Positions 1,291 through 32,311 of a stretch of DNA of 64,000 nt are shown here, one piece after another. The DNA is from Candidatus Microgenomates bacterium (lineage in GTDB: Bacteria; Patescibacteriota; Microgenomatia; UBA8517). Both the position numbers and the translations under genes were made by a program. The stretch lies in the NCBI GenBank assembly GCA_049519355.1, contig JBEKQV010000002.1, positions 67,479 through 131,478 on the forward strand. The letters are read 5' to 3'. The notes under the pieces were generated by a model. It was not told the DNA's origin. It ran no database searches and saw nothing but the letters and a program-made list of their open reading frames with translations. The number at the start of each line of letters is the position of its first letter. Within the stretch, counting starts at the first letter, position 1.

Positions 1291-1367
1291 GGTGGCTGTA
1301 GCTCAACGGCTAGAGCACTAGGTTGTGGACCTAGGGGTTGCGCGTCCGAATCGCGTCAGCCACCCCA
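1291..1367 (+). tRNA. tRNA-His (anticodon GTG) with genome-encoded G-1 and CCA
   Basis: Cloverleaf folded by hand: G-1 pairs with discriminator C73, acceptor GTGGCTG/CAGCCAC, D-arm GCTC..GAGC, anticodon stem CTAGG/CCTAG with loop TTGTGGA (GTG), T-stem GCGCG/CGCGT, 3' CCA at 1365-1367. The T-loop reads TCCGAAT, with C where U55 is expected. Confidence 0.85.
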
Positions 1368-2987
1368 ATTGTTTTGAGGTGCATAATGATCGTGTGTTTG
1401 TGCCGTAAATATGACATTATCTCCAGGTTCGAGCCGTTTAGAGGTAGAATACCTACTATCTAAGAAGTCTTTAATCTTCAGAAAAGGAATACGAGGCTGA
1501 ATATCCAATTTCTTGCCTGAAAGAGTCAAGTACGAGCCAATACCTCTAAGAACCAATCTTTTTGTACTCAGATCACCTTCAATAAATCTTTGCCGGGCTT
1601 TTGAGGCAAAATCAAATGTTTTTACGGTTAAGTCGTCCCATTCGTCGTTTCCCATGTCAAAATTATCCAAAGCTACTTTTGCCTGATCGCGCTCGGCAAT
1701 AAGTCTATCCATTTTTGATCTATACACTTCCTCCGGCATTCCGGATGACAATTTAAGATCCACAAGACCTTCTATTTTAGACGCCGCGCCATCGTAAGAA
1801 TCTTTTATGGCTCTAAGTTTTGATTCTCTAAATTTTCTATCTTCATTCGTAAGATATTTACACCATTCAGCAGCCCAAGTGGCAAAATCCGGGTCAACTT
1901 CAACGGTCTCCAAAAAATCCGCAACTTGTTTTTCAAGGGCGTTAGCGCTTATGTAAAGTTGATTGCAAATCTTGGTTTTACTTTTCTTCGTACACCTGTA
2001 ATATCTGAACTCTTTAGATTTACCATTTTTGTAACGCTTTATATGTCTTTCGCCACAGATCGCCATGCCACATTCACCACACCGGACAAGCCCACTAAGT
2101 GTAAATTCTAAAGGTTTTTGGGGTCGAGACTTGCCATTATCTTCAAGGATTTCCTGAACAAGTTCATATTCTTCGTCCTTGAGCATTCTCTCATGAATAC
2201 CTTTGTGAATTTTACCTTCATAAATAAATCTTCCTGCATAAAACGGATCACGGAGTATCCGGTACATCTGGCTTTTACCGATTTCCCGTCCCAGACTGTT
2301 CTTTAATCCCATTTTGCTTGCCTCCCTAGTTAACCCGCTTACGGAAAAATCTCTGGTCATATATAATTCAAACAGCTTTCTCATTAACGGAAAAGTTTTT
2401 GGATCGGGAAGTATGTCTCTTTTACCCTGAGGCTTGGTTTTATCGTTGATGAATCCGGGAGGTGCCAAAATCGGCGCGATTCCTTGTTCAACTTTGAAAT
2501 GAACACCCCTCATAGAGGCTTTACGGAGGTCCAGAATGTATTGATTAGCCATTCCACCCTCAAGGGATACCAATATCGCAGAATCTTCAGACTTGAAAGT
2601 TCTTTCCATGGTAACGATTTCATCAATTACACCTTTCTGGAGCATCCATTGAAGTTTTCCGGTATCAATTGGGTTTCTTGAAAGACGATTAAAATGCCAC
2701 GCAACTATTCCTTTTATGTCCTTCCTTTCGAGTGCAAGATCCGTCATCCGATCAAATTCAAGCCTGCCGGGTTGTTTAGCACTTTTGCTTTCTTCAAACC
2801 GCTTGAGAATCGGAAGATTCAACCTTTTTATAAGTTCATTATTTTCGCGGCTCTGATCCTCCAAACTTTGGACTTGCCGTTCATCGCTTTCCGAACTCTT
2901 GCGTGTATAAACCAAGTAATATTTTTTCACTACTGGCTCGGTTTTTTTACTTGTTCGTTCTTGAAAAATATCTTCGATAGTACCCAT
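1356..2987 (-). CDS. Large serine recombinase (resolvase/invertase catalytic domain + recombinase domain + zinc ribbon)
   Basis: 543 aa. N-terminal YLVYTRKSSESDERQVQSLEDQ matches the serine-recombinase catalytic motif around the nucleophilic Ser. A CGECG...C zinc-ribbon region and a C-terminal coiled coil are typical of large serine integrases. The last 12 nt, including the stop, overlap the 3' end of tRNA-His on the other strand. Confidence 0.85.
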   Translation of the reverse strand: MGTIEDIFQERTSKKTEPVVKKYYLVYTRKSSESDERQVQSLEDQSRENNELIKRLNLPILKRFEESKSAKQPGRLEFDRMTDLALERKDIKGIVAWHFNRLSRNPIDTGKLQWMLQKGVIDEIVTMERTFKSEDSAILVSLEGGMANQYILDLRKASMRGVHFKVEQGIAPILAPPGFINDKTKPQGKRDILPDPKTFPLMRKLFELYMTRDFSVSGLTREASKMGLKNSLGREIGKSQMYRILRDPFYAGRFIYEGKIHKGIHERMLKDEEYELVQEILEDNGKSRPQKPLEFTLSGLVRCGECGMAICGERHIKRYKNGKSKEFRYYRCTKKSKTKICNQLYISANALEKQVADFLETVEVDPDFATWAAEWCKYLTNEDRKFRESKLRAIKDSYDGAASKIEGLVDLKLSSGMPEEVYRSKMDRLIAERDQAKVALDNFDMGNDEWDDLTVKTFDFASKARQRFIEGDLSTKRLVLRGIGSYLTLSGKKLDIQPRIPFLKIKDFLDSRYSTSKRLEPGDNVIFTAQTHDHYAPQNNWGG

Positions 2988-3161: not shown

Positions 3162-3806
3162 TCAGCCGTAATCGTTTTGTTCCTCCTTCAATTGCTTAAT
3201 CGCATTCCAGAAGTTTTTTGGGTGTGGCGCGTAAGGCTTGCATGCGTATTCGTCCCAAATTTTATTGATCCTATCGAAACCCCACTTTTGAATCGTATGA
3301 GTAATCTGAAGTCTGACGGCATATTCCGGAGCCAAGGTATTAAATTCCGGTAAGGTACACCACTTAACAATTTTTTCTATTAGCTTATTTTCATCCTCAG
3401 AAAGTTTCTGTTCCCATTTATTAGAAACATCTCTATAGATATTCTTAGTCTCTGTGTTATTAGGCTCAGTATTATTAGGGAGAAGATTTTGTAACTTATC
3501 AGGAGAACATTCCTTCACAATAGATGTGAAGTTTTCTTCACCAATGAATTTGTAAATATTGGATTGCGAATAACCTCTCCGCTTAAAGTCAATAATTTGT
3601 TTTTTTCTTAAAGATCGGAGGTGTGCATTTATAATTCTCCTGCTTTTCCCCCGGATTCCGGCTATTGTTGCCTGAGACGGGAAAACCTTGCCTCTTTCGC
3701 CGTATTTGTAGCTTTTTAGCAAACATAGCGTCCTAAACTCGGCATCGCTAATGTTCTTGTCTTTAATTAGAAAGTTTGGTATTTGAGTAAAATCTTTGTT
3801 TTTCAT
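3162..3806 (-). CDS. Winged-helix/HTH DNA-binding protein, replication-initiator-like (plasmid/phage RepA/DnaD-N-like)
   Basis: 214 aa. N-terminal FTQIPNFLIKD...DAEFRTLCLL...GKVFPSQATIAGIRGKSRRIINAHLRSLRKKQIID is the usual phage/plasmid replication-initiator HTH pattern. It sits in the operon with the recombinase. Confidence 0.5.
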   Translation of the reverse strand: MKNKDFTQIPNFLIKDKNISDAEFRTLCLLKSYKYGERGKVFPSQATIAGIRGKSRRIINAHLRSLRKKQIIDFKRRGYSQSNIYKFIGEENFTSIVKECSPDKLQNLLPNNTEPNNTETKNIYRDVSNKWEQKLSEDENKLIEKIVKWCTLPEFNTLAPEYAVRLQITHTIQKWGFDRINKIWDEYACKPYAPHPKNFWNAIKQLKEEQNDYG

Positions 3807-3976
3807 GCTTTTTCTTTCTCTCTATCTTTCAATATGGGAACCAAAATGAAGCCTTTCCCGCCGCACGCATGGCATTGAACTCTTTTGAAGGAAACAGTAC
3901 CCCAACCGTTGCATACTGGGCATCTCTGGGCTATGTAGGATGGTTTTATCTGTGCCGGAATAATATTTTCTGTCAT
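3803..3976 (-). CDS. Small zinc-ribbon protein (57 aa, two CxxC pairs)
   Basis: Hand-translated: MTENIIPAQIKPSYIAQRCPVCNGWGTVSFKRVQCHACGGKGFILVPILKDREKEKA. Its stop overlaps the downstream ATG (ATGA). Not in the ORF track because it is under 60 aa. Confidence 0.4.
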   Translation of the reverse strand: MTENIIPAQIKPSYIAQRCPVCNGWGTVSFKRVQCHACGGKGFILVPILKDREKEKA

Positions 3977-4301: not shown

Positions 4302-5207
4302 ATGAGAAAAGCGAGAGTGTTTATTAGTTGTGGGCAAGATCCGGAAGAAAAAAAGGTCGGCTTAAAAATTGTTGAGTATTTTAGAAAAAGAGGTTTTGAT
4401 CCTTACTTCGCGGGAGAAGTTCAAACACCCGAAGCGTTAACTAGAGATATTTTTGAATCACTAAAAAGATCTGAGTATTTTATAAGTATAAATTTTGAAC
4501 GATCGGAACTTAATTCAGGATCACTTTTTGTCCGACAAGAATTTGCCATTGCAGCATTTTTAGGAATAGAGATGTTAGCCTTTCACAAAGGAAAAGATGC
4601 AACTTTGACAGGGAAAGGCACAGGAATTGGAAATTATTTGGTATTAAAGAGTATTGAATTTGTTTCCGTTAAAGGTTTGTTAAAGAATTTGGACAAAAAC
4701 ACCATGCATTGGGATTCTAATTCTGTTCACGGATTGAAATTAGAGTTTGGTAATTACCATAGCAATGTTGTCGTTAGTAATAACCCCAACGGTCCTCTAA
4801 CAAATTGGATTCATGTAATCGTGTCTAATACGAGTTCAAAATTCTATTGTAAAAATTGTTGCGCTTATGTTGATGAAGTCGTTGACCTAATCAATAAAAA
4901 GGTAATTATTGGCAAAAATGATTATAAGACTGAACTCGTTTGGTCAGGCGCCGGAGCCTTCACAATTAACATTCCTCAAGGTGGAAAAAGAGATTTTGAC
5001 GCCTGTTATTGGGCGCAAGGCACGAACGCATTGGTTTTTCATCAACTTTCAATGTCAACTTTTTATAGATACCCCAATTTGAATTTTGGTAAATATAAAA
5101 TTCGTTATGTTATTATTTCTGAAAATTTCCCAGCTTCCAAAGTAGAGGCAATTATTGAGTTTCGTAAAACTGGAATATCAGTTCTGAGCTTTGTACAAAC
5201 TGAATGA
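4302..5207 (+). CDS. TIR-like domain protein (N-terminal ~100 aa) fused to an uncharacterised beta-rich C-terminal domain (~200 aa); candidate defence/NADase-type effector
   Basis: The N-terminus ARVFISCGQD...GFDPYFA...IFESLKRSEYFISINFERSELNSGSLFVRQEFAIAAF follows the TIR pattern (FISxxxxD ... S-yF-vlS ... S-W/F-xxxE, with a candidate catalytic Glu in VRQEF). I could not relate the C-terminal part to any known family. Confidence 0.5.
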   Translation: MRKARVFISCGQDPEEKKVGLKIVEYFRKRGFDPYFAGEVQTPEALTRDIFESLKRSEYFISINFERSELNSGSLFVRQEFAIAAFLGIEMLAFHKGKDATLTGKGTGIGNYLVLKSIEFVSVKGLLKNLDKNTMHWDSNSVHGLKLEFGNYHSNVVVSNNPNGPLTNWIHVIVSNTSSKFYCKNCCAYVDEVVDLINKKVIIGKNDYKTELVWSGAGAFTINIPQGGKRDFDACYWAQGTNALVFHQLSMSTFYRYPNLNFGKYKIRYVIISENFPASKVEAIIEFRKTGISVLSFVQTE

Positions 5208-5238: not shown

Positions 5239-5463
5239 TTAAAACATTTCTTTTACCTTAATGTGGAGAGCGCGACCCAATTTGGCTAGCGTCTTTACCG
5301 AAACATTCCTTTTTCCATTTTCAAGCTGATTGTAAAAACTATAATCTAGCCCAGCCTTATACGCTAAATCTTCCTGCGTCATTCCTGCTTCGCGCCGGAG
5401 TTTTCCCAACCTCGCACCGATCTTTTTGTTGACTATAGTCATAGCCAAAGTATGGCTAGACAT
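5239..5463 (-). CDS. XRE-family helix-turn-helix transcriptional regulator
   Basis: 74 aa. IGARLGKLRREAGMTQEDLAYKAGLDYSFYNQLENGKRNVSVKTLAKLGRAL is the classic Cro/C1-type HTH. Confidence 0.8.
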   Translation of the reverse strand: MSSHTLAMTIVNKKIGARLGKLRREAGMTQEDLAYKAGLDYSFYNQLENGKRNVSVKTLAKLGRALHIKVKEMF

Positions 5464-5477: not shown

Positions 5478-5507
5478 TTGACTATAACCAATATTTAACC
5501 ATATACT
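5478..5507 (+). promoter_or_regulatory. Candidate sigma70-like promoter (TTGACT-18 nt-TATACT) for the 5520 gene
   Basis: TTGACT at 5478-5483 and TATACT at 5502-5507, with the ATG at 5520. The 5' UTR would be very short. Confidence 0.3.
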
Positions 5508-5510: not shown

Positions 5511-6029
5511 TTGATACAGATGAATATTTTCCTTTTTCTTCTGGCAGTTTTTGTAATTGCTGTTGTTTATCAAACATTTAAGCTCAAGCGTGAATCCGGA
5601 AAAGATTTTGAAAATAATTTAGTAAGAGCTTGGAAACAATACGATACGATCATGACTTACGATAAAGAACCGTTTGTGAGAGATGGCAAACCGGATCCTG
5701 TCTTAATTAAGTTCCAAGAGAGAACCAAAAAGGACTACGAAATGTATAAAAAATTGATAATGAGGTATCCCGACATTCCACGGCACAATAAAGCCAGAAT
5801 GGCAATCGACGATAATTGGTGTTTGTTGCTACAGACAGTATTTATGCTCTCTGGCTACCAAGTCATTGATTCCGCTGGACGCAGAAATGAGAATTTTACA
5901 AAGAAAAAATATGTATCAGACCAAACTGACCAGAAGCGAAGAAATTCTGAGATTGAACTAGATGAATATGAGAATTTTTTTAAGAATAAATTAAAAGAAT
6001 CTGAAGGAAAAGCCCCCCTACCGCTATAA
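5511..6029 (+). CDS. Hypothetical membrane-anchored protein (single N-terminal TM, charged soluble domain)
   Basis: The ORF track starts at TTG 5511. The in-frame ATG at 5520 (MNIFLFLLAVFVIAVVY...) is the more likely start. No recognisable domain. Confidence 0.45.
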   Translation: MIQMNIFLFLLAVFVIAVVYQTFKLKRESGKDFENNLVRAWKQYDTIMTYDKEPFVRDGKPDPVLIKFQERTKKDYEMYKKLIMRYPDIPRHNKARMAIDDNWCLLLQTVFMLSGYQVIDSAGRRNENFTKKKYVSDQTDQKRRNSEIELDEYENFFKNKLKESEGKAPLPL

Positions 6030-6084: not shown

Positions 6085-7827
6085 ATGGCGAAAGATTATT
6101 CCACTTGGTCAAAACCGGAGCTAATCCGTGAGTTAAAAAAAATCGGCGAAAGAAAAAAATACGGAATTGTTTGGGAAGATAAACCTGAGGAAGTTGTTGA
6201 ATTGTGTAAGACAAAGCTCCCAGTTCTCGAAGAACTTAAAAAGCGTGAAATAGCAACATCAAAGGAAGATCCCACCAATATTCTTATCGAGGGCGACAAT
6301 TACCACGCTCTTTCTGTCTTAAATTACACACATAAAGGAGAAGTTGACCTAATTTATATTGACCCTCCATACAATACGGGTAGCAAAGATTTTGTTTATA
6401 ACGACCGTTATGTTGATACAGAAGATGGCTATAGGCATAGCAAGTGGCTCAATTTTATGGACAAAAGACTAAGATTAGCAAAAAATCTTTTAAAAAATGA
6501 TGGAATTATATGTATTAGCATTGACGAGAATGAGCAAGCACAACTAAAACTTTTATGTGATGAAATATTTGGTGAAACTAATAGAATTTCTACCCTGCAT
6601 ATTCAGGTTAGATATTCCGGAAAGACTTTGAATGAGAAAAACGACTGGCAGCCCGTAATGGAATATGTATTAATTTATGCAAAAAATGGAAACTCCTTTA
6701 GAGCAAACAAACCAACAGTTGAATATTCAATTGATAAATTTAATTACGAAATAAAAGAATTGACTCAGGGGACTGAGATTCTGGTAAAAAACAGAAGGGT
6801 AACTATATTTAAAAAAGGTGAATGGAAAATACTAAAACACACAGAATCTGGTAAAAATCTTTTAAAAGAGACTTGGGTTTCTGGAAGCATATATTCAGGA
6901 ACAGGAAATGGAACAATGGTTCAAAATGTAATCGAGCCGAGAGTGCTGGTTGACGGATATGGAAGCTTATACAAGATCGAAGGTCTAGGAGAAGATGGTT
7001 TGGGATTCCGTTATTTTACCGGTCCTCAAAAGGTTGGAGCAACAAGAAGCAAGATGTACACAGGTATTCCGACGGTTAGAGCAGAAGAATTAAATGAAGG
7101 AAATGCTGTTAGATATTTATCTATTCCTAACTATTACGATTTTAGTCCTGACTTTGGAAATATAAGAAGTGAGGGCGGCGTTCCTTTTAATAGCGGTAAA
7201 AAACCAGTCAAAATGTTGAAACAAATTATTAACTACCATAAGAATAAAAATGCTACTATTCTCGATTTTTTTGCCGGTTCTGGTACAACTGCACACGCTG
7301 TTATGGAAATAAACAAATTCGACTCCGGATCCCGAAAATTTATTCTGTGTACAGACAATGAGGATAATACTGGTAGCGGTACTAAAATAGCTGAGGACAT
7401 ATGCTATCAAAGAATAATGAATGTTATTAAGGGCTATAACCATAAAACCGGATTGGGCGGTACATTAAAGTATTTTAAAACAGCGTTTGTTGACAGTGCG
7501 CCATCGGACGAGAATAAAAGAATATTGGTTGACAAATCTACTGAAATGCTTTGTCTTAAGGAGGATTGTTTTGACAATCTCACTGAGGGTAAAGAATACA
7601 AAGCATTTACCAATAGCAAAAACAATCTTCTTGGAATCATTTATGATGATGCCGGAATAGAACCTTTCAAGAAATTTATTAGAGAGACAAATAAGAAATT
7701 TGTAGTTTATGTTTTTTCCCTCGATGAAAGTGCACGAGAAGAAGAATTTGAAGATATTAGAAAATTGGTGGAGCTCAAACCTATTCCTGCGGTTATATTA
7801 AATGTCTATAAGAGAATTTTCAAATGA
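6085..7827 (+). CDS. mod: Type III restriction-modification system methyltransferase subunit (Mod), N6-adenine, beta-class
   Basis: 580 aa. Motif IV DPPYNTG lies upstream of motif I ILDFFAGSGTTAHAV, the order and sequences characteristic of Type III Mod proteins (EcoP15I-like). 4-nt overlap (ATGA) with the downstream res. Confidence 0.8.
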   Translation: MAKDYSTWSKPELIRELKKIGERKKYGIVWEDKPEEVVELCKTKLPVLEELKKREIATSKEDPTNILIEGDNYHALSVLNYTHKGEVDLIYIDPPYNTGSKDFVYNDRYVDTEDGYRHSKWLNFMDKRLRLAKNLLKNDGIICISIDENEQAQLKLLCDEIFGETNRISTLHIQVRYSGKTLNEKNDWQPVMEYVLIYAKNGNSFRANKPTVEYSIDKFNYEIKELTQGTEILVKNRRVTIFKKGEWKILKHTESGKNLLKETWVSGSIYSGTGNGTMVQNVIEPRVLVDGYGSLYKIEGLGEDGLGFRYFTGPQKVGATRSKMYTGIPTVRAEELNEGNAVRYLSIPNYYDFSPDFGNIRSEGGVPFNSGKKPVKMLKQIINYHKNKNATILDFFAGSGTTAHAVMEINKFDSGSRKFILCTDNEDNTGSGTKIAEDICYQRIMNVIKGYNHKTGLGGTLKYFKTAFVDSAPSDENKRILVDKSTEMLCLKEDCFDNLTEGKEYKAFTNSKNNLLGIIYDDAGIEPFKKFIRETNKKFVVYVFSLDESAREEEFEDIRKLVELKPIPAVILNVYKRIFK

Positions 7828-10022
7828 TTTACTTAAAGGATTACCAAAAAGAAGCTGTAGCGAGTCTAAAAGAAACTGTAGAAAAGTTATTGAGGTCATC
7901 TGAGCGTGAGATTTGTATTTTTCAAGCTCCTACCGGAAGTGGAAAAACTGTTATGGTTTCGGAACTTCTTAAAGATTTAGTGAGAGATAGAAAAGACGAC
8001 AAAAAGTTTTCTTTTGTCTGGATTTCAGTCCGGATGCTGCACGAGCAAAGTAAGGAAAAGCTTGAAAAATATTATGCAGATGACAGGTTACTTCAATGTT
8101 CATATTTTGAGGATTTGGAAGATAAAAAGATTGGCGAAAACGAAATCTTGTTTATTAACTGGCAAAGCATAAATAAAAAAGACATAAACATTTATGTCAG
8201 AGAAAACGAGCAAGACAATAATCTTAACAGCGTAATTCAAAATACAAAAGAAGAAGGGCGCGAAATAATACTTATTATCGATGAAAGCCACCACACAGCG
8301 GGATCCGAAAAGTCAAAGGAACTGATAGAAGTAATTAGTCCGAAAGTAACGATTGAAGTTTCTGCTACCCCGCAACTAAAAGAAGGTATCGGCGGATACG
8401 AGAAAATTAATCTGAGTGATGTAAAAGCGGAGGAAATGATTAAGTCTGAAATTTCGGTAAATCCAGAGTTCACAAATGTTAAGGTTGGGTCAGAAAGTGC
8501 GGATGAACTTGTCATAGGACAAGCGTTAAAGAAACGAGAAGAATTAGCAAACCTATACAGGAAATCTGGATCAAATATAAACCCCCTTGTATTGGTTCAG
8601 TTGCCAGATCAAAAAAGCAGCTTGATTAGTAAAAAAGAAGATGTTCTAAAAATTCTTAACGATAAATTCGCTATCAATGAGAAAAATGGAAAATTAGCAG
8701 TTTGGTTATCAGAAGAAAAAACAGAAACACTTGCCAATATCGAGAAAAACGATAATGAAGTCGAGGTTTTGGTTTTCAAGCAAGCCCCTGCACTTGGCTG
8801 GGATTGTCCAAGAGCGTCAATACTTATAATTTTTAGGGAAACCAAGAGTTTTGTTTTTACGATTCAAACGATTGGTAGGATTATGCGTATGCCAGAATTG
8901 AAATACTATTCCGAAGAAGAATTGAATAAAGGCTTTGTATTTACCAATCTTCCGAATATTGCAATAACCGAGGATTACGCAAAAGATTATGTCACGATTT
9001 ACGAAGCCAAAAGAAGCGCGGAACTTTACAAAGACATTTCCTTGCCGTCAATATTTCTAAGGCGACAAAGGGAAAGAACAAGATTATCCGGAGAATTTGT
9101 TACCATCTTTCAAAAAGTTGCAAATGAAAACGATCTCAAAAATCGAGTAGTATTTACTCCTTCAAAACTAGTAAATCCAATAATTGCAGATGGTAGAATC
9201 GTCAATGTTGACCAAGCGGGCGAAATTGAACATAAAGGAGTAATTGAAGTTAAATTAAATCCGCTTGAACTTCAACAGCTTTTTGATAGTTTTATCTCGC
9301 AGAATTGCTCTCCATACGCTCCAGTAGATTCAAGCGATAGAATGAAAACCGCCATTTATAATTTTTTTACAATAAATTTCAAGATTAGGAAATTTGATCC
9401 GACTGTCCAGCGTATAGTTCTAGGTAAGGAAAATGTGCAGGCATTCGTTGACACAATAAACTTGGCTAAAGAAAAATACCAATTGGAAATTGTTAGGCAA
9501 CTTAGTGAAAAAAGGGAACTTCAGACAACCCCAGAATGGGAAGTTCCGGTAATAGTTACCTATAACAGCAGGTATATCAGTGAAAATAAACCAAAGTCTA
9601 TTCTTAAGCCCTATTACACCAAGAAAGCCAGTGAACCGGAAATGTTATTTATTGAGCTCTTAGAAGGATCAGATAAGGTTAAATGGTGGTTCAAGAATGG
9701 TGAGAGCGAAATTAAGTATTTTGCAGTCTTGTATAAAGATGAAGCGGAGATTGAACACGCTTTTTATGTTGACTTTATCGTTCAATTTACCGATGGAAAG
9801 ATAGGTTTATTCGATACCAAAAAGGGAATAACTGCCAAAGATGCAAAAATGCGAGCAAAAGGTTTAGCACGCTACATAAAAGAGCAGTCAAAGAAAGGAA
9901 GAAAGATATGGGGTGGTATAGCGGTATATGTTAACGGTAGTTGGAGATATAACGAAAGTGAAGATTATGTCTATGAAGAAGGTAATCTGTCTAAAGATTG
10001 GAAATTTCTTAATCTTAATTAG
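7824..10022 (+). CDS. res: Type III restriction enzyme Res subunit (SF2 helicase + C-terminal PD-(D/E)xK nuclease)
   Basis: 732 aa. Walker A QAPTGSGKT, DEAH-type IIDESHH, and a C-terminal VDFIV...FDTKKG that is PD-(D/E)xK-like. Translationally coupled to mod. Confidence 0.75.
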   Translation: MIYLKDYQKEAVASLKETVEKLLRSSEREICIFQAPTGSGKTVMVSELLKDLVRDRKDDKKFSFVWISVRMLHEQSKEKLEKYYADDRLLQCSYFEDLEDKKIGENEILFINWQSINKKDINIYVRENEQDNNLNSVIQNTKEEGREIILIIDESHHTAGSEKSKELIEVISPKVTIEVSATPQLKEGIGGYEKINLSDVKAEEMIKSEISVNPEFTNVKVGSESADELVIGQALKKREELANLYRKSGSNINPLVLVQLPDQKSSLISKKEDVLKILNDKFAINEKNGKLAVWLSEEKTETLANIEKNDNEVEVLVFKQAPALGWDCPRASILIIFRETKSFVFTIQTIGRIMRMPELKYYSEEELNKGFVFTNLPNIAITEDYAKDYVTIYEAKRSAELYKDISLPSIFLRRQRERTRLSGEFVTIFQKVANENDLKNRVVFTPSKLVNPIIADGRIVNVDQAGEIEHKGVIEVKLNPLELQQLFDSFISQNCSPYAPVDSSDRMKTAIYNFFTINFKIRKFDPTVQRIVLGKENVQAFVDTINLAKEKYQLEIVRQLSEKRELQTTPEWEVPVIVTYNSRYISENKPKSILKPYYTKKASEPEMLFIELLEGSDKVKWWFKNGESEIKYFAVLYKDEAEIEHAFYVDFIVQFTDGKIGLFDTKKGITAKDAKMRAKGLARYIKEQSKKGRKIWGGIAVYVNGSWRYNESEDYVYEEGNLSKDWKFLNLN

Positions 10023-10048
10023 AACCTAGAAATTTTGTATTAGTTTTT

Positions 10049-10459
10049 ATGCCCGTATCTAAAAAGGAAGAATTGTGTGCCTATCATGAAGCCGGGCATG
10101 CGGTGTTGGCTGTTATATTAGGTATGCCCGTTGAATCTGTGAGTATGAAGGATCGCGTAACGAAATATAAAGTTGAAGGTAAAATACGCGATAGTATCTT
10201 GGTATCACTTGCAGGGGCTTTTGCAGCACAACATATCGATAAAATGGGACTGACCGCAGCAGATGACCTTTACAAAGCAAAGCGACTGCTAATCGAAGGA
10301 GAAAATATCGAATCATTCGAAAGAGAGGCAAAGAGACTTGTGAAAAAACATAAAAAAATAATCCACGCTGTAGCCTTAGAATTGTTATCCAAAAACTGCT
10401 TAACCGGAGAGGAGGTAAAAAGGATTGTGGACATACATTTCTTACCTCAACAAACTTAG
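10049..10459 (+). CDS. Stand-alone FtsH-type (peptidase M41) zinc-metallopeptidase domain protein, no AAA+ or TM region
   Basis: 136 aa. AYHEAGHAV is the M41 HExxH site. TAADDLYKAKRL matches the FtsH third zinc ligand region (GASNDLERAT). The whole protein corresponds only to the C-terminal protease domain of FtsH. Confidence 0.6.
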   Translation: MPVSKKEELCAYHEAGHAVLAVILGMPVESVSMKDRVTKYKVEGKIRDSILVSLAGAFAAQHIDKMGLTAADDLYKAKRLLIEGENIESFEREAKRLVKKHKKIIHAVALELLSKNCLTGEEVKRIVDIHFLPQQT

Positions 10460-10719
10460 CTTAGCATGTTAATTATCTAAGTGTATGGTACCCTTGGTCG
10501 CATGTGCAGTATTAGGTTAAATATTAATACGATTCCCCCAATATAGTATTTACAATGATCTAGCCTCAAATGGGTATGTGATTTACTCAAAGTTGTGCTT
10601 GAGACAATTGATGAAACTGATAGTCATTAGATAACATTTGTTTTAGAAATTCTTTTTCTTTGTCTTGATTAAGTTTCCAATAAGTTCTAACATCGTTCAC
10701 TAGGTCACCCAATATTTTC

Positions 10720-10728
10720 TGATATAAT
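10720..10728 (+). promoter_or_regulatory. Extended -10 element (TGaTATAAT) 7 nt upstream of the dsbA-like ATG; the mRNA is probably leaderless
   Basis: TGATATAAT at 10720-10728, ATG at 10736. There is no room for a Shine-Dalgarno. Confidence 0.35.
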
Positions 10729-10735
10729 ATTTACT

Positions 10736-11428
10736 ATGGATTTTTTGAAAAGAAATAAGGTATTTATTATCGTCGTTCTGGCAACTTTGGTTTTGCTCAT
10801 AGGAGGAATTTATTTATTCTCGAGAGGCAGTGGGAATTCAACAACATTAAGTAGCACCGTAAGTTCCTCCCTTTTAATACCCCAAAATGATTACGAAACG
10901 TCCGGTATAGTCAACGGAAATTATTTGCTCGCAACTCCATCGGCCAGTGTTACTCTTGTAGAATTTGGTGATTATGAATGCCCGGCGTGCGGCGAATACC
11001 ATCCGATGGTTAAGCAGCTTTTAACTGATTTTGCCGGCAAAGTTATTTTTGTTTTTAGAAATTTTCCGCTTTCTCAACACTTGAACGCCCCAATTTCGGC
11101 GTATGCAGCAGAAGCCGCCGGGCTTCAAGGAAAATTCTGGCAAATGCACGACAAACTCTACGAAACACAAAATGATTGGTCAGGCTCAACCGACGCGAGA
11201 AGTATATTCATTGGTTATGCTAAAGATTTAGGTTTGGATGTTACTAAATTTACGGCAGATATAGATTCCTCAGCCGTTAAGAATAAAGTTCAGAGCGATA
11301 TGAATGACGGGAATACAATTGGAATTAATGAAACACCGACATTTTTCCTTAACGGATCCGAACTTAATCTTACCGGCTCTTCTAATGAACTTGAGACTGA
11401 TGTTCAAAAAGTGCTTAACGGAAAATAG
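10736..11428 (+). CDS. DsbA/BdbD-family thiol:disulfide oxidoreductase (thioredoxin fold), membrane-anchored
   Basis: 230 aa. N-terminal TM helix. A CPAC active site sits in VEFGDYECPACGEYHP, the DsbA-type context. Confidence 0.75.
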   Translation: MDFLKRNKVFIIVVLATLVLLIGGIYLFSRGSGNSTTLSSTVSSSLLIPQNDYETSGIVNGNYLLATPSASVTLVEFGDYECPACGEYHPMVKQLLTDFAGKVIFVFRNFPLSQHLNAPISAYAAEAAGLQGKFWQMHDKLYETQNDWSGSTDARSIFIGYAKDLGLDVTKFTADIDSSAVKNKVQSDMNDGNTIGINETPTFFLNGSELNLTGSSNELETDVQKVLNGK

Positions 11429-16690: not shown

Positions 16691-19603
16691 TCAACGAAGG
16701 TATGCTCCTGTATATGAAGCTCTATTTTTTGCAATATCACTGGGTCTTCCTGTAGCCACCACTTTTCCTCCGGCATCTCCCCCTTCAGGACCTAAATCAA
16801 TCACCCAATCGCTATTTTTAATTACATCCAAATTATGCTCAATAATAAAGACGCTGTTACCTTTTTGGACGAGAAGCCTCAAAACATTCATCAACTTTTC
16901 GACATCGGCAAAATGCAGTCCTGTTGTCGGTTCGTCCAGAATATAAACAGTTCTCCCGGTTGCCTTTCTTGAAAGTTCGGTTGCCAATTTAACCCTTTGC
17001 GCCTCACCGCCCGAAAGTGTAGTTGCCGCCTGGCCCAATTCCATGTAGCCAAGCCCGACAAGCGAAAGTGTTTCAAGTTTGGCCTCGATTTGAGGATGGG
17101 CGTGGAAAAATTCCAGTGCTTCATCGACAGTCATAGCCAAAACATCCGCAATGCTTTTTCCTCTATATAAAACTTCCAATGTTTGCTGGTTATAACGTTT
17201 ACCGTGACAAACATCACAGGTTATCCAAATATCACTCATAAATTGCATCTCTATCTTTATTTGACCCTGGCCTTCACAAGCCTCACACCTTCCGCCTCTG
17301 ACATTAAACGAAAATCTTCCTTTCTTATAACCCGCAGCCCTGGCGTCACGTGTTGAGGTATATACGTCGCGTATAGGATCAAAAACCCCCGTATATGTTG
17401 CAGGGTTGCTCCTTGGGGTTCGCCCAATCGGACTTTGGTCAATTAGAATTACTTTGTCGACGTTTTCCAACCCTTCCAAATTTCTATATCCTCCAGGCTC
17501 ACCCCTATATATAGGGTTTAACTCTTTTTGCAACGCCGGATATAGCGTTTCTACTAGAAGAGTGGATTTACCGGATCCGGAAACTCCGGTTATTGCCACA
17601 AGCTTTCCCAATGGAAGTTCAACATCAATATTTTTCAGATTATATTGATTGCATCCTTTAATTTTTAGGGCACCGTGACCTCCGATTGTCAGTTGCTGAT
17701 TGGATATCTCTATTTTTTTCTTGCCAGACAAGTATTTGCCTGTAATTGATTTTGGATTTTCCTCAATTTGCTTCGGAGTGCCTGTTGCGACAACCTCCCC
17801 TCCGTGCTTTCCGGCTCCAGGCCCAAAATCGACAATATAGTCGCTCTGCTTCATCATTGTTGCGTCGTGTTCAACAACTGTAACGGTATTTCCTAAATCC
17901 CTAAGGTTCTTTAACGTATCTATAAGTTTTTGGTCATCTCTTGGATGAAGCCCAATTGTGGGTTCATCAAGAACATACAAAACTCCTGTTAAACCGGAGC
18001 CTATTTGGCTTGCAAGCCTTATTCTTTGGGCTTCCCCGCCGGAAAGTGAACCTGCAACTCTATTTAAGGTTAAATACTCCAAGCCGACCGAAATTAAAAA
18101 CTTAAGTCGACCCAAGATTTCTTTAATAATTAGCCGGGAAATTTCTTTTTCCCTGGTATTTGTGACCGGAGTTTGACTTAATGAGTTTACCCATTCAATT
18201 GCTTTTATTATTGAATAATCGGTAACCTCGGCAACTGAAAGACCGCCGATTGTTATGGAAAGAGCCTCTTTTTTAAGCCTGGTCCCGTTACATTCCGGGC
18301 AAATCTTCTCTCTCATGTATTTCCTAATCTCTTCTTTTACCCAGTCGCTATCCGACTCCGCGTACCTTCTCTCCAATTCGCTTACAAATCCGGTAAAGCT
18401 TTCCCAAATATAAGTCTCGCGGCCGAACCTGTTCGTCCCATAAACGTGGTACTGTTTTGTTCCGGTTCCTTCCAATAAAATATTTTTTTCTTTATCGCCG
18501 AATTCTTTGATAGGCTTCCTCATGTCGATACTGTTCTCTTCACACATTTGTTTAACCAATCTTCCGTACCATGTTTCTCGCTCAAACATATTGGCAAAAG
18601 GTAATATTCCGCCTTCCATAATGGTTAGTTCAGGAGAGAATACGAGTTCCGGGGCAACTTTAAGAATTTTTCCCAACCCCGTGCAAGTCGGACAGGCTCC
18701 CTGAGGAGAATTAAAAGAAAAACTTCTGGGTTCAATTTCGGGGAGGCTTATATTATCGACCGGACACGCAAACCTTTCCGAAAAGAGATGATTCTCAAAT
18801 TTTTTGGGGTATGTAGGCATGGTAAACTCTTTATCAAGAACCTGTGCCAAAACAACCATGCCTTCGGCCAAATTAAGAGCTTGCTGAATCGAATCGGCAA
18901 GTCTGCTCTTTAAATTATCATAAAAAACTTTGTCTTTAATGTTTGCGGGGGAAACACTGAGCCTGTCTATAACTGCCTCAATTGTGTGTTTATTGGTTTT
19001 AATTAAAACCAAATCTTCCGATAGATCATGAATATAGCCGTCAATTCTAACCTGTCTGTAGCCTTTTGACTTTAAATTTTCAAAAAGTTGGGAAAATTCT
19101 CCTTTTCGCGCTTCAACCATCGGCGAAAGAATCAAAAACCAGGCTTTTTTATCTTTATTGGCGGTTTCCGTTATCAAATTAAGTGATTGGTCGACAATTT
19201 GATCCAAAGTTTGATGAGAAATTTCTCTTCCGCAAACTGGACAATGAGGATGACCGATTCGGGCAAAAAGAAGCCTTAAATAATCATAAATTTCCGTAAC
19301 CGTTCCGACAGTTGAACGTGGGTTATGAGATGTTGTCTTCTGATCGATTGAAATTGCCGGAGAAAGTCCTTCAATCGTATCAACATCAGGCTTTTCCATA
19401 ATCCCCAAGAATTGGCGTGCGTAGCTTGAAAGCGATTCAACATATCTTCTTTGACCTTCGGCATAGAGTGTGTCGAAAGCCAAAGAGCTTTTCCCACTGC
19501 CGGAAACGCCCGTAAGAACGACTAATTTGTTCTTGGGAATATCAAGGTCAATATTTTTGAGATTGTGCTGTCTTGCACCCCGTATTTTAATTGCGTTTTC
19601 CAA
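16691..19603 (-). CDS. uvrA: Excinuclease ABC subunit A (UvrA)
   Basis: 970 aa. Two ABC ATPase modules (GVSGSGKSSL, LSGGEAQR x2) and zinc-finger Cys clusters. The start codon is TTG (ttggaaaacgcaatt = M-E-N-A-I). Confidence 0.95.
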   Translation of the reverse strand: MENAIKIRGARQHNLKNIDLDIPKNKLVVLTGVSGSGKSSLAFDTLYAEGQRRYVESLSSYARQFLGIMEKPDVDTIEGLSPAISIDQKTTSHNPRSTVGTVTEIYDYLRLLFARIGHPHCPVCGREISHQTLDQIVDQSLNLITETANKDKKAWFLILSPMVEARKGEFSQLFENLKSKGYRQVRIDGYIHDLSEDLVLIKTNKHTIEAVIDRLSVSPANIKDKVFYDNLKSRLADSIQQALNLAEGMVVLAQVLDKEFTMPTYPKKFENHLFSERFACPVDNISLPEIEPRSFSFNSPQGACPTCTGLGKILKVAPELVFSPELTIMEGGILPFANMFERETWYGRLVKQMCEENSIDMRKPIKEFGDKEKNILLEGTGTKQYHVYGTNRFGRETYIWESFTGFVSELERRYAESDSDWVKEEIRKYMREKICPECNGTRLKKEALSITIGGLSVAEVTDYSIIKAIEWVNSLSQTPVTNTREKEISRLIIKEILGRLKFLISVGLEYLTLNRVAGSLSGGEAQRIRLASQIGSGLTGVLYVLDEPTIGLHPRDDQKLIDTLKNLRDLGNTVTVVEHDATMMKQSDYIVDFGPGAGKHGGEVVATGTPKQIEENPKSITGKYLSGKKKIEISNQQLTIGGHGALKIKGCNQYNLKNIDVELPLGKLVAITGVSGSGKSTLLVETLYPALQKELNPIYRGEPGGYRNLEGLENVDKVILIDQSPIGRTPRSNPATYTGVFDPIRDVYTSTRDARAAGYKKGRFSFNVRGGRCEACEGQGQIKIEMQFMSDIWITCDVCHGKRYNQQTLEVLYRGKSIADVLAMTVDEALEFFHAHPQIEAKLETLSLVGLGYMELGQAATTLSGGEAQRVKLATELSRKATGRTVYILDEPTTGLHFADVEKLMNVLRLLVQKGNSVFIIEHNLDVIKNSDWVIDLGPEGGDAGGKVVATGRPSDIAKNRASYTGAYLR

Positions 19604-19731
19604 ACAATGTTTCCGCCGGTTTTATCCGGTGGATTAAACATTATACCACAGGCTCAAAGTTGTATAATCCGCATATGAAAGAAAACTAGAATCTATTACG
19701 TCCGCTTACACACCGATACATACCAGGTGAT

Positions 19732-19992
19732 ATGACTTTGGAACAACTTGCCGATAACCCACTCCTTCTAAAAGAAACAAACATCGCCGGGATGGACGGT
19801 GAAGACAAAACTGAACTTCAGATGTCTCTTAGAACTTTATCGGGAAAATTTGACTGTATTTCAAATCTAAGAAAAGAGCTTGTTTCTAACCCAGGTAGCC
19901 TCGGTTTGGAAAAAAATCTAACCAAGGCCTTACTTGTTCTTCTTGTAGATCGCAGAAGCGCAGGCGAATACCGGCCAACACAGTCTACCTAA
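19732..19992 (+). CDS. Hypothetical small protein (86 aa)
   Basis: ORF preceded by an AGGTGA SD 5 nt upstream of the ATG, in the 396-nt uvrA-uvrB intergenic region. No recognisable domain, so it may be spurious. Confidence 0.25.
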   Translation: MTLEQLADNPLLLKETNIAGMDGEDKTELQMSLRTLSGKFDCISNLRKELVSNPGSLGLEKNLTKALLVLLVDRRSAGEYRPTQST

Positions 19993-19999
19993 CCCGTTT

Positions 20000-22021
20000 T
20001 TATTCTATTTCTCTAATTTTATCCCTAATTTCCGCCGCAAGTTCAAAGTTGAGATCTTGGGCGGCAAGACGCATTTCGGTTTGAAGGTTTTTAATCAGTC
20101 GCTTTTTCTCCATAGGAGTCATCGCATCAACTTCCAAATGAGGAAGACTTGCATAAACAGGTTCTTTTGACCCGAAAAGCCAGGGGGCACGTTCGTCCGA
20201 TTCGCGTTCAGTCAATTTCTCACGGATTGGCTTAGTAACACTCACCGGGGTTATATTGTGTTTTTTATTGTATGCAACTTGGTACTTACGCCTTCTTCTT
20301 ACCTCGGAGAGTGCTCTCTCCATGGATCCCGTCACTTTATCGGCATACATAATTACACGTCCCTCAACGTGTCTTGCGGCCCTACCCATCGTTTGAATAA
20401 GCGTTACGTCACTTCGCAGGAAGCCTTCTTTGTCCGCATCAAGTATTGCCACCAAACTTACTTCGGGCAAGTCTAACCCTTCTCTAAGAAGGTTAATTCC
20501 TACAAGAACGTCATACTTTCCGTTTCTTAAATCATCAAGAATATCGGTTCTATCAAGTGTGGCCACGTCAGAATGCAAATATTGGACTTTCAGACCTTGC
20601 TCATTCAAATATGTTGTCAAATCTTCGGCTGTACGTTTTGTAAGAGTCGTAACGAGTGTTCTTTGTTTTTTAGCCGTAACTTTTTTGATTTCTTCGATAA
20701 CGTCGGCAACTTGATTTTTAACAGGCCTAACCTCAACCAAAGGATCCGGAATACCGGTAGGACGGACCAAAAGCTCCACGGTTTTACCTCCGCTCATACT
20801 TATCTCCCATTCATTAGGAGTTGCGGAGCTGGCAATAAAATTGGGAATCCTGCGCATAAACTCCTCGAATCTTAAAGGCCTGTTGTCAAGTGCAGAAGGA
20901 AGCCGAAAGCCGTAATCGATCAATGTTTGTTTCCTAGCCAAGTCTCCGTTAAACATCCCGCGAATCTGGGGAAAAGTCATATGCGATTCATCAACCATAA
21001 GAAGCCACTTATCTTTGTAGGGCTCATTAAAGTAATCCAAAAGAGAATAGGGCGGGTCTCCCGGGCTTCTGCCGTCAAAATACCTGGAATAGTTTTCAAT
21101 TCCTTTGACATAACCAACTTCCTGAATCATTTCAAGATCATAGGTAACTTTTTGAGCTATTCTATGGGCTTCCAAAAGTTTCCCTTCTTTCTTAAGTTGA
21201 GCAACACGGACAACCAAATCGCTTCTTATATGGTCAAAGGCGTCATTATAAGTTGAAGGGTTTGTCATAAAATGTTTTGCCGGATAAAGAATAAATTTCG
21301 TCGGGTCAAAACCCTCTTTCTTTTCGACTTTGGTGCCGCTTGCCGCGTTAATCATTTCAACTTTATTTATTGAATTTTCGCCAAATTCAATGTGAACACC
21401 CTCGTCAAGATATGCCGGGTAAACGTCGACCGCATTACCGCGAACCCTGAAAGTGCCGCGGTTAAATCCGAAGTCGCTTCTTTCATACTGAAGATCAACA
21501 ATCCTATCGATAATTTGCTCACGGGCAATCTTCATCCCTTCAGCAAATTCCAAAACAAAATGCCCGTATTCACGGGGTGAACCGATGTTATATATACACG
21601 AAACCGAGGCAATAACAATGGTGTCACTCCTAGTCAAAAGATTGGTAGTCGCGGCAAGACGGAGCTTGTCTATAGTTTCATTTATATCGGCATCTTTTTC
21701 TATATATGTATCGGTGGAAGGAATATAAGCCTCAGGTTGATAAAAATCATAGTAAGAAACAAAATAACTGACAGCGTTACCTGGAAAGAAATCTCTTAAT
21801 TCCTGATAAAGTTGTGCGGCGAGTGTTTTATTGTGAGAAATAATAAGCGTTGGCCGCTGGACATTCTGAATAACGTTAGCCATTGTAAAAGTCTTACCGG
21901 AACCGGTTACTCCTAATAGTGTCTGATATTTTTCGCCATGCAAAACGCGCTGGGTAAGTGTTTCAACAGCTTTTTTTTGATCAGGAATCGGTTCAAATTT
22001 GGACTCGAGTTTAAATTCCAT
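20000..22021 (-). CDS. uvrB: Excinuclease ABC subunit B (UvrB)
   Basis: 673 aa. Helicase motifs (GVTGSGKT, DESH) and a UvrB C-terminal coiled coil. A minus-strand TATAAT (rc of 22036-22041) lies only about 14 nt upstream of the ATG. Confidence 0.95.
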   Translation of the reverse strand: MEFKLESKFEPIPDQKKAVETLTQRVLHGEKYQTLLGVTGSGKTFTMANVIQNVQRPTLIISHNKTLAAQLYQELRDFFPGNAVSYFVSYYDFYQPEAYIPSTDTYIEKDADINETIDKLRLAATTNLLTRSDTIVIASVSCIYNIGSPREYGHFVLEFAEGMKIAREQIIDRIVDLQYERSDFGFNRGTFRVRGNAVDVYPAYLDEGVHIEFGENSINKVEMINAASGTKVEKKEGFDPTKFILYPAKHFMTNPSTYNDAFDHIRSDLVVRVAQLKKEGKLLEAHRIAQKVTYDLEMIQEVGYVKGIENYSRYFDGRSPGDPPYSLLDYFNEPYKDKWLLMVDESHMTFPQIRGMFNGDLARKQTLIDYGFRLPSALDNRPLRFEEFMRRIPNFIASSATPNEWEISMSGGKTVELLVRPTGIPDPLVEVRPVKNQVADVIEEIKKVTAKKQRTLVTTLTKRTAEDLTTYLNEQGLKVQYLHSDVATLDRTDILDDLRNGKYDVLVGINLLREGLDLPEVSLVAILDADKEGFLRSDVTLIQTMGRAARHVEGRVIMYADKVTGSMERALSEVRRRRKYQVAYNKKHNITPVSVTKPIREKLTERESDERAPWLFGSKEPVYASLPHLEVDAMTPMEKKRLIKNLQTEMRLAAQDLNFELAAEIRDKIREIE

Positions 22022-22071
22022 ATCTATATTTTATCATTATATGAACAAAAATCATTTCGTAAAATGTTTGG

Positions 22072-22084
22072 TTTTGATACAAAA
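22072..22084. promoter_or_regulatory. 13-nt perfect palindrome TTTTGataCAAAA in the uvrB/lexA divergent region, a candidate operator (LexA box?)
   Basis: Seen directly. It lies between the divergent uvrB and lexA start codons. A related GTTTTG...TATAAAAAAG motif is at 22110-22124. Confidence 0.25.
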
Positions 22085-22092
22085 AGTTCCAG

Positions 22093-22121
22093 TTGACTAA
22101 TTCGGGTTTTGTTTGTATAAA
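22093..22121 (+). promoter_or_regulatory. Candidate lexA promoter TTGACT-17 nt-TATAAA; the mRNA is probably leaderless
   Basis: TTGACT at 22093-22098, TATAAA at 22116-22121, ATG at 22127. Confidence 0.35.
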
Positions 22122-22126
22122 AAAGT

Positions 22127-22750
22127 ATGGCACTTATAGTTTACAAAAGGCAACGACAGATCCTGGGTTTTATAAAACAGTTTATCCAGTCTAACGGAAC
22201 CGCACCAACCTTGAAGCAGATTGCCGGCGCCATTGGCGTCTCCTCTCTTGCGACGGTTCATGAACACCTTCAGGCATTAGAGGCAAAGGGTTTAATCAAA
22301 AGAAAAGCAGGCAAGATCCGTTCGATTGAGCTCGAAGAGAGCAAAATCAATTTCGGTAAACCAGAAGGCTTTGATGCGCCCATTCTTGGTTTCATAGCAG
22401 CAGGCGCGCCTATCGAACCTTACACCGACCCCAACGCCACAATGAATATCCCTGCAGCTTTCGTTACCGGCAAAAAAAGAACTTATGTGCTCCAGGTACG
22501 TGGTGAATCAATGATTGAAGACGGAATAATGGATGGCGATCATGTAATTATCGAACAGGCGGAAGCGGCAAACAACGGTGAAATTGTTGTCGCACTACTC
22601 GATAACGGCATGGCTACCCTTAAAAGATTTTTCAGAGAAACGACAAGAATAAGGCTTGAACCGGCTAATGCCAAGATGCAACCAATTTTTGTTAAAAATG
22701 TGAGAATTCAAGGGCGTGTAGTCGGATTGGTAAGAAGATATCAGAACTAA
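22127..22750 (+). CDS. lexA: LexA repressor (SOS regulator, S24 peptidase)
   Basis: 207 aa. N-terminal winged HTH, cleavage-site region IAAGAPIEP, catalytic Ser-Lys (RGESM ... VALLDNGMATLKRF). Confidence 0.85.
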   Translation: MALIVYKRQRQILGFIKQFIQSNGTAPTLKQIAGAIGVSSLATVHEHLQALEAKGLIKRKAGKIRSIELEESKINFGKPEGFDAPILGFIAAGAPIEPYTDPNATMNIPAAFVTGKKRTYVLQVRGESMIEDGIMDGDHVIIEQAEAANNGEIVVALLDNGMATLKRFFRETTRIRLEPANAKMQPIFVKNVRIQGRVVGLVRRYQN

Positions 22751-22751
22751 T

Positions 22752-23375: not shown

Positions 23376-23393
23376 TCCGGAAAATTATACAAT

Positions 23394-25061: not shown

Positions 25062-25062
25062 T

Positions 25063-26331: not shown

Positions 26332-26335
26332 AGAC

Positions 26336-28603: not shown

Positions 28604-28618
28604 ATAAACAGTATAAAA

Positions 28619-31217: not shown

Positions 31218-31223
31218 ACTGGT

Positions 31224-31898: not shown

Positions 31899-32311
31899 CT
31901 CATGTTCTCAAAATATCTGTCTATCAGCTCCTCAAGTTTTCCATGGAAACTTCCTTTACCGTGCCGTGTGTGAGGAAGTAGTGCCCCCGAAAAATTCTTT
32001 GGAATGTGGCTTATTTCATGAAGAAGAACCTTGTCCTGATCTCGCGGAGACAATTTATCAAAATAATGCGAAATTACCTCAACAATGTAAGCAGGCTCAA
32101 TCTGTAAAGCGTTTTGCCATAATCTAGGTAAACCCCAAGTTCTGGCATAGGCCCGCGATTTGGAACCAACGGAACGATAAAAGAAGAGTCTTTCTCCCAA
32201 AAGGTAATCAAGATGAAGCTCGTCAATCAAACGAAGAACTCGGGCCCTTATATCAGGTGCCTCAACCCACTCAAATTTTAAATACTTTCGTTCCCTCCTT
32301 AACCGCCTCAT
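31895..32311 (-). CDS. Putative HExxH zinc metallopeptidase (small; SprT/YgjP-like)
   Basis: 138 aa with LLHEISHIP and downstream His/Gly-rich residues. Family assignment is tentative. Confidence 0.4.
   Translation of the reverse strand: MRRLRRERKYLKFEWVEAPDIRARVLRLIDELHLDYLLGERLFFYRSVGSKSRAYARTWGLPRLWQNALQIEPAYIVEVISHYFDKLSPRDQDKVLLHEISHIPKNFSGALLPHTRHGKGSFHGKLEELIDRYFENMR

Follow-up and report, generated by a model that had tools for sequence, protein, structure and literature searches.

What does the protease domain of FtsH do when it is encoded on its own, and why should such a gene close a Type III restriction-modification (R-M) operon? The question is raised by a short gene in a 64,000-nucleotide stretch of contig JBEKQV010000002.1 from a Candidatus Microgenomates bacterium; this whole stretch is called the window below, and coordinates are counted from its first letter. 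The gene encodes a small protein, here named mini-M41, that carries an FtsH-type (M41) zinc-peptidase domain and lies directly behind the R-M genes mod and res. We find that mini-M41 is a genuine member of the M41 family at the level of the domain and is not an FtsH, and that it belongs to a large family of solo proteins. With rather more confidence than doubt, we lean towards the view that it is an active, autonomous peptidase that its island would carry as passenger cargo.

A minimised M41 domain

The open reading frame (ORF) of mini-M41 begins with ATG and encodes 136 amino acids (aa), whose sequence runs, in order, MPVSKKEELCAYHEAGHAVLAVILGMPVESVSM...LTAADDLYKAKRLL...LTGEEVKRIVDIHFLPQQT. 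Residues 13-17 form the HEAGH motif, and TAADDLYKAKRL corresponds to residues 69-80. The features on which the assignment depends are as follows.

10049..10459, plus strand: mini-M41 gene, a minimised stand-alone FtsH-type zinc-peptidase domain, based on its ORF, Pfam, hhalign, AlphaFold2 (AF2) and Foldseek
10085..10099, plus strand: codons for H13-E14-A15-G16-H17, the two predicted zinc-ligand His residues and the catalytic Glu, aligned to the HEAGH of FtsH
10265..10267, plus strand: D73 codon, predicted third zinc ligand, aligned with the TGAxxD Asp that is invariant in FtsH domains
10023..10048, plus strand: spacer of 26 nt between res and mini-M41, with no promoter-like or terminator-like site reported

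Sequence and structure comparisons agree on the identity of this domain. The Pfam profile PF01434 (Peptidase_M41) matches with 32.0 bits (E 1.4e-7), above its gathering score of 29.9, and it does so in two stretches, the HEAGH helix and the C-terminal helices; the only other Pfam matches are weak ones to M50. When the single sequence is compared by phmmer with the sequences of the PDB, FtsH alone appears among the significant matches (E<=0.001); residues 7-37 fall on its catalytic helix and first strand, while residues 88-131 fall on its final helices. An hhalign comparison of 47 aligned solo relatives with 13 FtsH M41 domains covers 135 columns with a probability of 99.8% (E 4.3e-28), and in it D73 coincides with the Asp that is invariant in TGAxxD. 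The AF2 model, for which the alignment of solo relatives served as input, is a very confident one, with a predicted local distance difference test score (pLDDT) of 96 and a predicted template modelling score (pTM) of 0.90. Among the 50 PDB matches listed by Foldseek for this model, all are protease domains of FtsH, YME1, AFG3L2 or FtsHi, with query-normalised template modelling scores of 0.56-0.80 and 20-25% identity between mini-M41 and FtsH.

Comparison with the structures of FtsH from T. maritima (2CE7/3KDS) and A. aeolicus (2DI4) indicates homology across the whole domain and an equal predicted fold. The shared elements are the catalytic helix (H13-E14-x-x-H17 in mini-M41), the TGAxxD-type helix that carries the Asp ligand (Asp73), and a C-terminal helical bundle ending in an 'LTGEEV'-type motif. 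Relative to FtsH, mini-M41 lacks approximately 13 residues of a beta-hairpin after the catalytic helix and approximately 45 residues that in FtsH separate the Asp helix from the final helices. Moreover, FtsH is a protein of about 600 aa with an AAA+ ATPase as well as transmembrane and periplasmic parts, whereas the 136 aa of mini-M41 include none of these. No Walker A motif is present in mini-M41, matches to AAA profiles being confined to the neighbouring Res protein, and no hydrophobic span of transmembrane length occurs within its 136 aa, which AF2 models as one globular domain. The first-pass annotation of this stretch, made from the sequence alone, had likewise recognised an FtsH-type M41 domain lacking both ATPase and anchor, with a HEAGH zinc site and a third-ligand Asp, and in these respects its description stands. 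Thus, the Pfam threshold is passed and the HExxH and Asp motifs and the fold are all in place, so that membership of the M41 family holds at the domain level. Membership of FtsH itself does not hold, given that the AAA+ module and the N-terminal anchor are missing and that the NCBIfam equivalog TIGR01241 (FtsH_fam) scores 18.3 bits against a cut-off of 600.

A word-indexed search recovered the identical protein in 13 contigs, under the name of a Candidatus Microgenomates metagenome-assembled genome (MAG) protein, and beyond these identical copies returned two relatives at 53-54% identity. Altogether, the mini-M41 sequence is identical across more than 20 contigs from several samples, and peat and bog are the habitats in which this Microgenomates strain has been sampled. 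Two independent assemblies (ENA, JGI) break inside the gene, at 10188 and 10196, and both end at window position 12603; the sequence in both is identical to that of the window. These paired breaks may reflect strain-level branch points of the assembly graphs.

A large family of solo proteins

Conserved stand-alone homologues, whose absence would by its own terms have counted against the first-pass annotation, are plentiful, and its description of the domain as an orphan is misleading. A phmmer search with the single sequence against 1.84 billion cluster representatives gave 171 matches at E<=1e-3. The best 150 of these are mostly 130-260 aa in length and only four exceed 400 aa; a single one of those four has a Pfam AAA domain, and it is a true AAA+ FtsH. 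A profile search extended the set to 327 proteins at E<=1e-5, many of them 150-200 aa long and encoded in the interior of long contigs, with source labels that read 'ATP-dependent Zn protease' or hypothetical. The 47 aligned solo relatives are 26-54% identical to mini-M41. In this alignment H13, E14, H17 and A109 are invariant, conservation reaches at least 90% at A11, G56, D73 and L112, and 45 of the 47 proteins have Asp at the position of D73.

To find family members in their genomic context, species-representative genomes were scanned with a DNA pattern encoding HEAGHA-x5-LG-x3-E-x-V-S, for which 80 of 102 matched stretches were returned. This family-specific pattern was chosen because an AYHEAGHA pattern derived from a narrow alignment was swamped by true FtsH genes. 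Short solo genes account for 61 of the 80 loci. Forty-five of them belong to Planctomycetota, and the other 16 carry the labels Actinomycetota, Gemmatimonadota, Acidobacteria, Chloroflexota, Bacteroidota, Verrucomicrobia, Myxococcota, Proteobacteria and Clostridia-type Bacillota. The D73 column lies outside the search pattern, and 58 of the 62 sequences (the query and the 61 proteins from the scan) have Asp there. That the general-base Glu and the three metal ligands hardly vary among proteins so divergent is what marks a working enzyme.

Mobile elements contribute to the family as well. Among predicted viral structures, the best match comes from an uncultured Caudovirales phage, whose solo protein of 214 aa is named 'Peptidase M41 domain-containing protein' (UniProt A0A6J5RJ76). 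A tblastn search of 50,697 phage records with mini-M41 and two relatives from viral contigs found no match, and the corresponding search of plasmids returned only six weak matches whose contexts are not conserved, among them one beside a MarR gene on the Agrobacterium plasmid pAtK84b (Arad_14027) and one beside an IS256 transposase gene in Bradyrhizobium. Many other members are ordinary chromosomal genes of Planctomycetota without any mobile context. Solo proteins from all these settings (A0A6J5RJ76, Arad_14027 and the Planctomycetota genes) consist, like mini-M41, of a lone domain of 130-220 aa with the same H-E-H-D set. The present copy differs from them in that it lies at the short end of the size range, lacks a Glu after 'LAG..A', resides in a bacterium of the candidate phyla radiation (CPR) and sits behind an R-M operon. 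We conclude that mini-M41 belongs to a large solo family of approximately 130-200 aa, represented on chromosomes, plasmids, viral contigs and CPR mobile elements. Databases already label such proteins as M41-domain proteins; the architecture is widespread but unstudied.

Occasional departures from the solo form were also seen. Some members carry a C-terminal RNA polymerase alpha C-terminal domain (alpha-CTD)/HhH region (P0174, P0182) or a Laminin_G_3 domain (P0032), and one 576-aa protein is a two-copy form with a further HExxH region (P0113). The fusions to alpha-CTD/HhH give a hint that at least part of the family works at or close to proteins that are bound to DNA or involved in transcription.

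The island and the restriction-modification genes

Mini-M41 closes an island of approximately 9 kb that encodes a serine recombinase and adjoins tRNA-His, and it was correctly described at the outset as the last gene of this island, beside a Type III mod-res pair and starting 27 nt after res. Specifically, the res ORF ends at 10022, 26 nt lie between it and mini-M41, and the ATG falls 27 nt past the last base of res. The remaining features of the island and its right flank are listed in order.

1292..1367, plus strand: tRNA-His, found by ARAGORN; abuts the left island end
1356..2987, minus strand: large serine recombinase (Pfam Resolvase, Recombinase and Zn_ribbon_recom) at the left island end
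between the serine recombinase and HTH_36 genes: ORF of 56 aa
3162..3806, minus strand: Rep-like HTH_36 protein, matching phage replication-initiation and DnaD-like PHROGs
3803..3976, minus strand: zinc-ribbon-like ORF of 57 aa, directly upstream of the HTH_36 gene, with weak DnaJ CXXCXGXG/Anti-TRAP-like matches
4302..5207, plus strand: island protein of 301 aa with no Pfam, PADLOC, PHROG or NCBIfam match
5239..5463, minus strand: XRE-type helix-turn-helix gene (Pfam HTH_3, E 5e-13), divergent from the operon
5511..6029, plus strand: orf169/172, with a hydrophobic N-terminus and no family match; first gene of the putative operon
6085..7827, plus strand: Type III methyltransferase (mod), 580 aa (Pfam N6_N4_Mtase; PADLOC MTase_III, E 3e-81)
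7824..10022, plus strand: Type III restriction subunit (res), 732 aa (Pfam ResIII, E 5.5e-24; PADLOC REase_III)
10460..10735, no strand: intergenic stretch of 276 bp that should hold the right island junction

A promoter-like sequence, TTGACT-18-TATACT, is located at 5478-5507 ahead of orf169, the mod stop overlaps the res start, and neither a promoter-like nor a terminator-like site separates res from mini-M41. This arrangement points to one orf169-mod-res-M41 transcript, and mini-M41 is thus probably co-transcribed with the three genes before it. A Shine-Dalgarno-like motif precedes only 6 of the 48 window genes examined (ORFs of at least 150 aa), and so its absence at mini-M41 is no argument against translation. 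Many window genes have a TATAAT-like box approximately 10-25 nt from the ATG, as does the DsbA-like gene at 10736, which suggests that leaderless or Shine-Dalgarno-independent initiation is widespread in this Microgenomates genome.

Lower G+C is a further mark of mobile cargo: its fraction is 0.33-0.37 over the R-M and M41 genes and about 0.41 from the DsbA-like gene (10736-11428) onwards. A search for att repeats of the island, and for a second tRNA-His 3' end at the right junction (10460-10735), found neither, as expected for a serine recombinase. Every contig bearing mini-M41 or the neighbouring DsbA-like gene contains the island with the identical protein, and a search for an island-free variant of the locus by way of the DsbA-like protein found none. 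At the left end, the final four codons of the recombinase gene (W-G-G-stop) lie antisense to the acceptor 3' end of tRNA-His. The HTH_36 gene and the 57-aa ORF suggest that the island has its own replication module. The N-terminus of the 301-aa protein (MRKARVFISCGQ...) is weakly TIR-like, matching over residues 15-64 the PDB entry 7xoz, an ADP-ribosyl cyclase/cyclic ADP-ribose hydrolase, with E 0.13; this may be a TIR-like defence or effector gene.

The position of mini-M41 invites the idea that the protease serves the Type III R-M system, or its regulation, as a functional accessory. Such an accessory could cleave Res and so delay or relieve restriction after transfer, cleave the XRE protein in the manner of ImmA or CapP, serve as a latent back-up effector, or act as an anti-restriction factor. 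In favour of this idea, mini-M41 follows res on the same strand after only 26 nt with no terminator-like or promoter-like site between, the XRE gene diverges from the operon, and zincin peptidases on mobile elements have known roles in conflict (PMC5512222; CapH/CapP preprint). The first-pass annotation had proposed co-occurrence with Type III R-M or with the XRE protein in other genomes as the test. We approached this both from the protease and from the R-M side.

From the protease side, neighbouring ORFs were scanned with Pfam at 79 solo loci, made up of 18 solo loci, the 16 non-Planctomycetota genome loci and the 45 Planctomycetota loci, and the 25 commonest families were listed for each set. 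No Pfam family is represented by more than two of the 142 ORFs around the 18 loci, by more than two of the 78 ORFs around the 16 loci, or by more than four of the 86 flanking ORFs at the 45 Planctomycetota loci. ResIII, N6_N4_Mtase and HTH_3 are never among the 25 commonest neighbour families in these three scans of 79 loci. Marks of mobile elements do turn up sporadically: terminase, tape measure, transposases, integrases, HTH_17, DUF3987, SocA/Panacea and one M78 peptidase. Among homologues whose context is usable, the closest (54% identity) resides on a plasmid-like contig of 4.9 kb with a Replic_Relax gene and no R-M genes.

Two of the closest-homologue contigs each encode a multi-pass membrane protein of about 186 aa (L001, 887-1447, minus strand; L056, 935-1492, minus strand). 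These two proteins are 24% identical, with a pairwise E of 9e-7 and no Pfam match, and on L056 the gene is convergent with the M41 gene and overlaps it. The membrane protein was considered as a partner and rejected, since it has no counterpart in this window.

From the R-M side, res proves to be part of a very mobile family: more than 6,600 homologues of res were found, and those 70-82% identical come from CPR bacteria, DPANN archaea and Nitrososphaera; the sources of these Res proteins (about 730 aa) are Microgenomates, Daviesbacteria, Saccharimonadales, Woesearchaeota, Aenigmarchaeota and Nitrososphaera. This distribution implies that the Type III R-M module would have undergone recent horizontal transfer between domains. 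Four distinct contexts of res genes 79-82% identical were examined as loci of 7-14 kb. After res, the first has a 222-aa unknown protein, the second a 287-aa HTH_17 protein and an OLD-family nuclease, the third a 59-aa ORF, and the fourth a 97-aa ORF followed by DUF5655, UDG and Fic genes. When all four contexts were searched in six frames for HExxH, no mini-M41-like ORF was found; the sole match, HEAKH in one context, lies upstream of mod on the opposite strand and has flanks that are not M41-like.

One of these four contexts is a second island on the same 872-kb genome contig as the first (Ga0427927_000003, 17982-32174, outside the window). It has a res that is 79% identical, a mod that is 47% identical with a divergent middle, its own serine recombinase and an XRE gene whose product is 42% identical, and it carries no M41 gene. 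The presence of a related XRE in an island free of M41 indicates that XRE is part of the island or R-M backbone, or a controller-like regulator, and not a dedicated partner of the protease. This second island further holds an OLD-family nuclease, a PLD-like gene, and a reverse transcriptase and bAvd pair that looks like a diversity-generating retroelement. The divergent central region of its mod suggests a possible difference in specificity.

Comparison with characterized systems leads in the same direction. ArdC-type anti-restriction metalloproteases have an ArdC-N single-stranded DNA-binding domain fused to a zincin peptidase (PMC5512222), a two-part architecture that differs from the single domain of mini-M41. 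The proteases ImmA, IrrE and CapP (M78, COG2856) resemble mini-M41 in being small HExxH zinc proteases of mobile elements and defence loci, but they form another family, and mini-M41 has no match to PF06114 (Peptidase_M78) at E<=0.1. ImmA-type protease genes adjoin the gene for their XRE-type repressor substrate, whereas here the XRE gene is divergent and 4.6 kb upstream. Given this distance, and the homologue of XRE in an M41-free island, an ImmA-like pairing with XRE was rejected. A fusion of res and mini-M41 by frameshift was likewise ruled out, because the genes are in different frames with stops between. PADLOC-DB 2.0 contains no family that matches mini-M41 at E<=0.1, and no informative match was found in PHROGs or NCBIfam. 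Conserved co-occurrence with mod and res, as would mark an extra subunit of a Type III R-M system, is not observed.

Taken together, the negative co-occurrence at 79 solo loci and in four res contexts, the closest homologue without R-M genes and the lack of an M78 or PADLOC match make an R-M accessory role unlikely in our judgement. The earlier suggestions of an anti-restriction factor, an ImmA-like switch, a toxin/effector pair or a defence role have accordingly lost their footing. Different cargo occupies the slot behind res from one context to the next, and the adjacency of mini-M41 to the R-M genes is best read as incidental, a product of modular cargo packing that is specific to this island.

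Activity and alternative readings

We therefore return to mini-M41 as an active, autonomous peptidase carried as passenger cargo, a reading in which catalytic activity, ATP independence, co-transcription and passenger status are the parts that we infer. An intact M41 core in a compact single domain, the lack of an unfoldase, anchor or conserved partner, and carriage on a mobile element point to a soluble zinc endopeptidase. H13, H17 and D73 would hold the zinc ion, and E14 would activate a water molecule as base. With no unfoldase to feed it, mini-M41 would cut only peptides or exposed, unstructured segments, independently of ATP, and it would act as a soluble cytoplasmic processing or clean-up peptidase.

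Peptidases of this size can be active alone, as is known for minigluzincins such as selecase, which are soluble HExxH peptidases of approximately 100-130 aa. These proteins use Glu as the third ligand and belong to an M48/M56-like fold lineage. Minigluzincins (the name appears in PMC4559962) thus share the small, solo zincin format with mini-M41, but no sequence or fold match links the two in Pfam or among the Foldseek matches listed. A precedent for the proposed mode of action is LonC, a relative of the AAA+ protease Lon that lacks ATPase activity and was shown by experiment to cut, independently of ATP, only unfolded proteins and peptides (PMC3391209). LonC works without ATP hydrolysis, as we propose for mini-M41, but it is a serine-lysine protease that has a hexameric chamber and retains a large AAA-like domain in degenerate form, and it is not homologous to mini-M41.

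Several observations weigh against our preferred interpretation. First, in FtsH structures the segment deleted from mini-M41 sits beside the active site, and the cleft of mini-M41 could therefore be impaired. Second, mutagenesis has reportedly tied E479 of E. coli FtsH to activity; the equivalent residue is Ala60 in mini-M41, is also Ala in its three closest relatives, and is Glu in only 27 of the 47 solo relatives. Third, the known occurrences of the exact protein all belong to one strain lineage, and usable context is available for one close homologue only, the other two being located on contigs that are too short. Fourth, the 26-nt spacer and the lack of a terminator after res would accommodate a functional R-M link. 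Finally, a literature search found no paper on solo M41 domains or on M41 in defence.

The loss of the E479-equivalent residue in this subfamily raises the idea that mini-M41 is a non-catalytic or semi-catalytic mimic of FtsH: by docking on the host's FtsH, on FtsH adaptors or on FtsH substrates it would modulate proteolysis in the host to the element's advantage. The retention of the FtsH protease-domain fold, including the C-terminal helices, and carriage on mobile elements fit this idea, and phage-encoded inhibitors of FtsH and Lon exist. However, the general-base Glu hardly varies across a very divergent family, and neither does any of the three zinc ligands, which is the mark of an enzyme rather than a binder, and many family members are plain Planctomycetota chromosomal genes without mobile context. 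We give this mimicry little credence. We are equally doubtful of a broader proposal, that solo mini-M41 proteins are a widespread but unrecognised class of autonomous, ATP-independent zinc proteases that serve on mobile elements, as here behind mod-res, as trans-acting regulators or effectors, for example by trimming Res or a host factor and so setting when restriction begins after island transfer, or by docking on host FtsH to redirect proteolysis.

That mini-M41 is what remains of the 3' part of a broken ftsH, or a pseudogene in decay, is scarcely credible: it is short against the approximately 190-200 residues of an M41 domain (Pfam profile length 191), but its ATG directly follows an in-frame stop that closes the frame, the DNA upstream is an intact res reading to 10022 with no AAA+ remnant, no second HE[AGST]GH motif occurs elsewhere in the 64-kb window, both internal deletions are common to the whole solo family, identity to FtsH is low, the sequence is identical in its many contigs from several samples, and the predicted model is compact and confident.

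The outcome removes a candidate new defence component, and its significance is modest. It shows that the protease domain of FtsH also has an evolutionary history of its own, as a solo protein of approximately 130-200 aa in many phyla and on mobile elements. Such solo M41 proteins are routinely mislabelled as 'ATP-dependent Zn protease' despite having no ATPase. The mini-M41 family is a tractable target for learning what an M41 active site does without an unfoldase.

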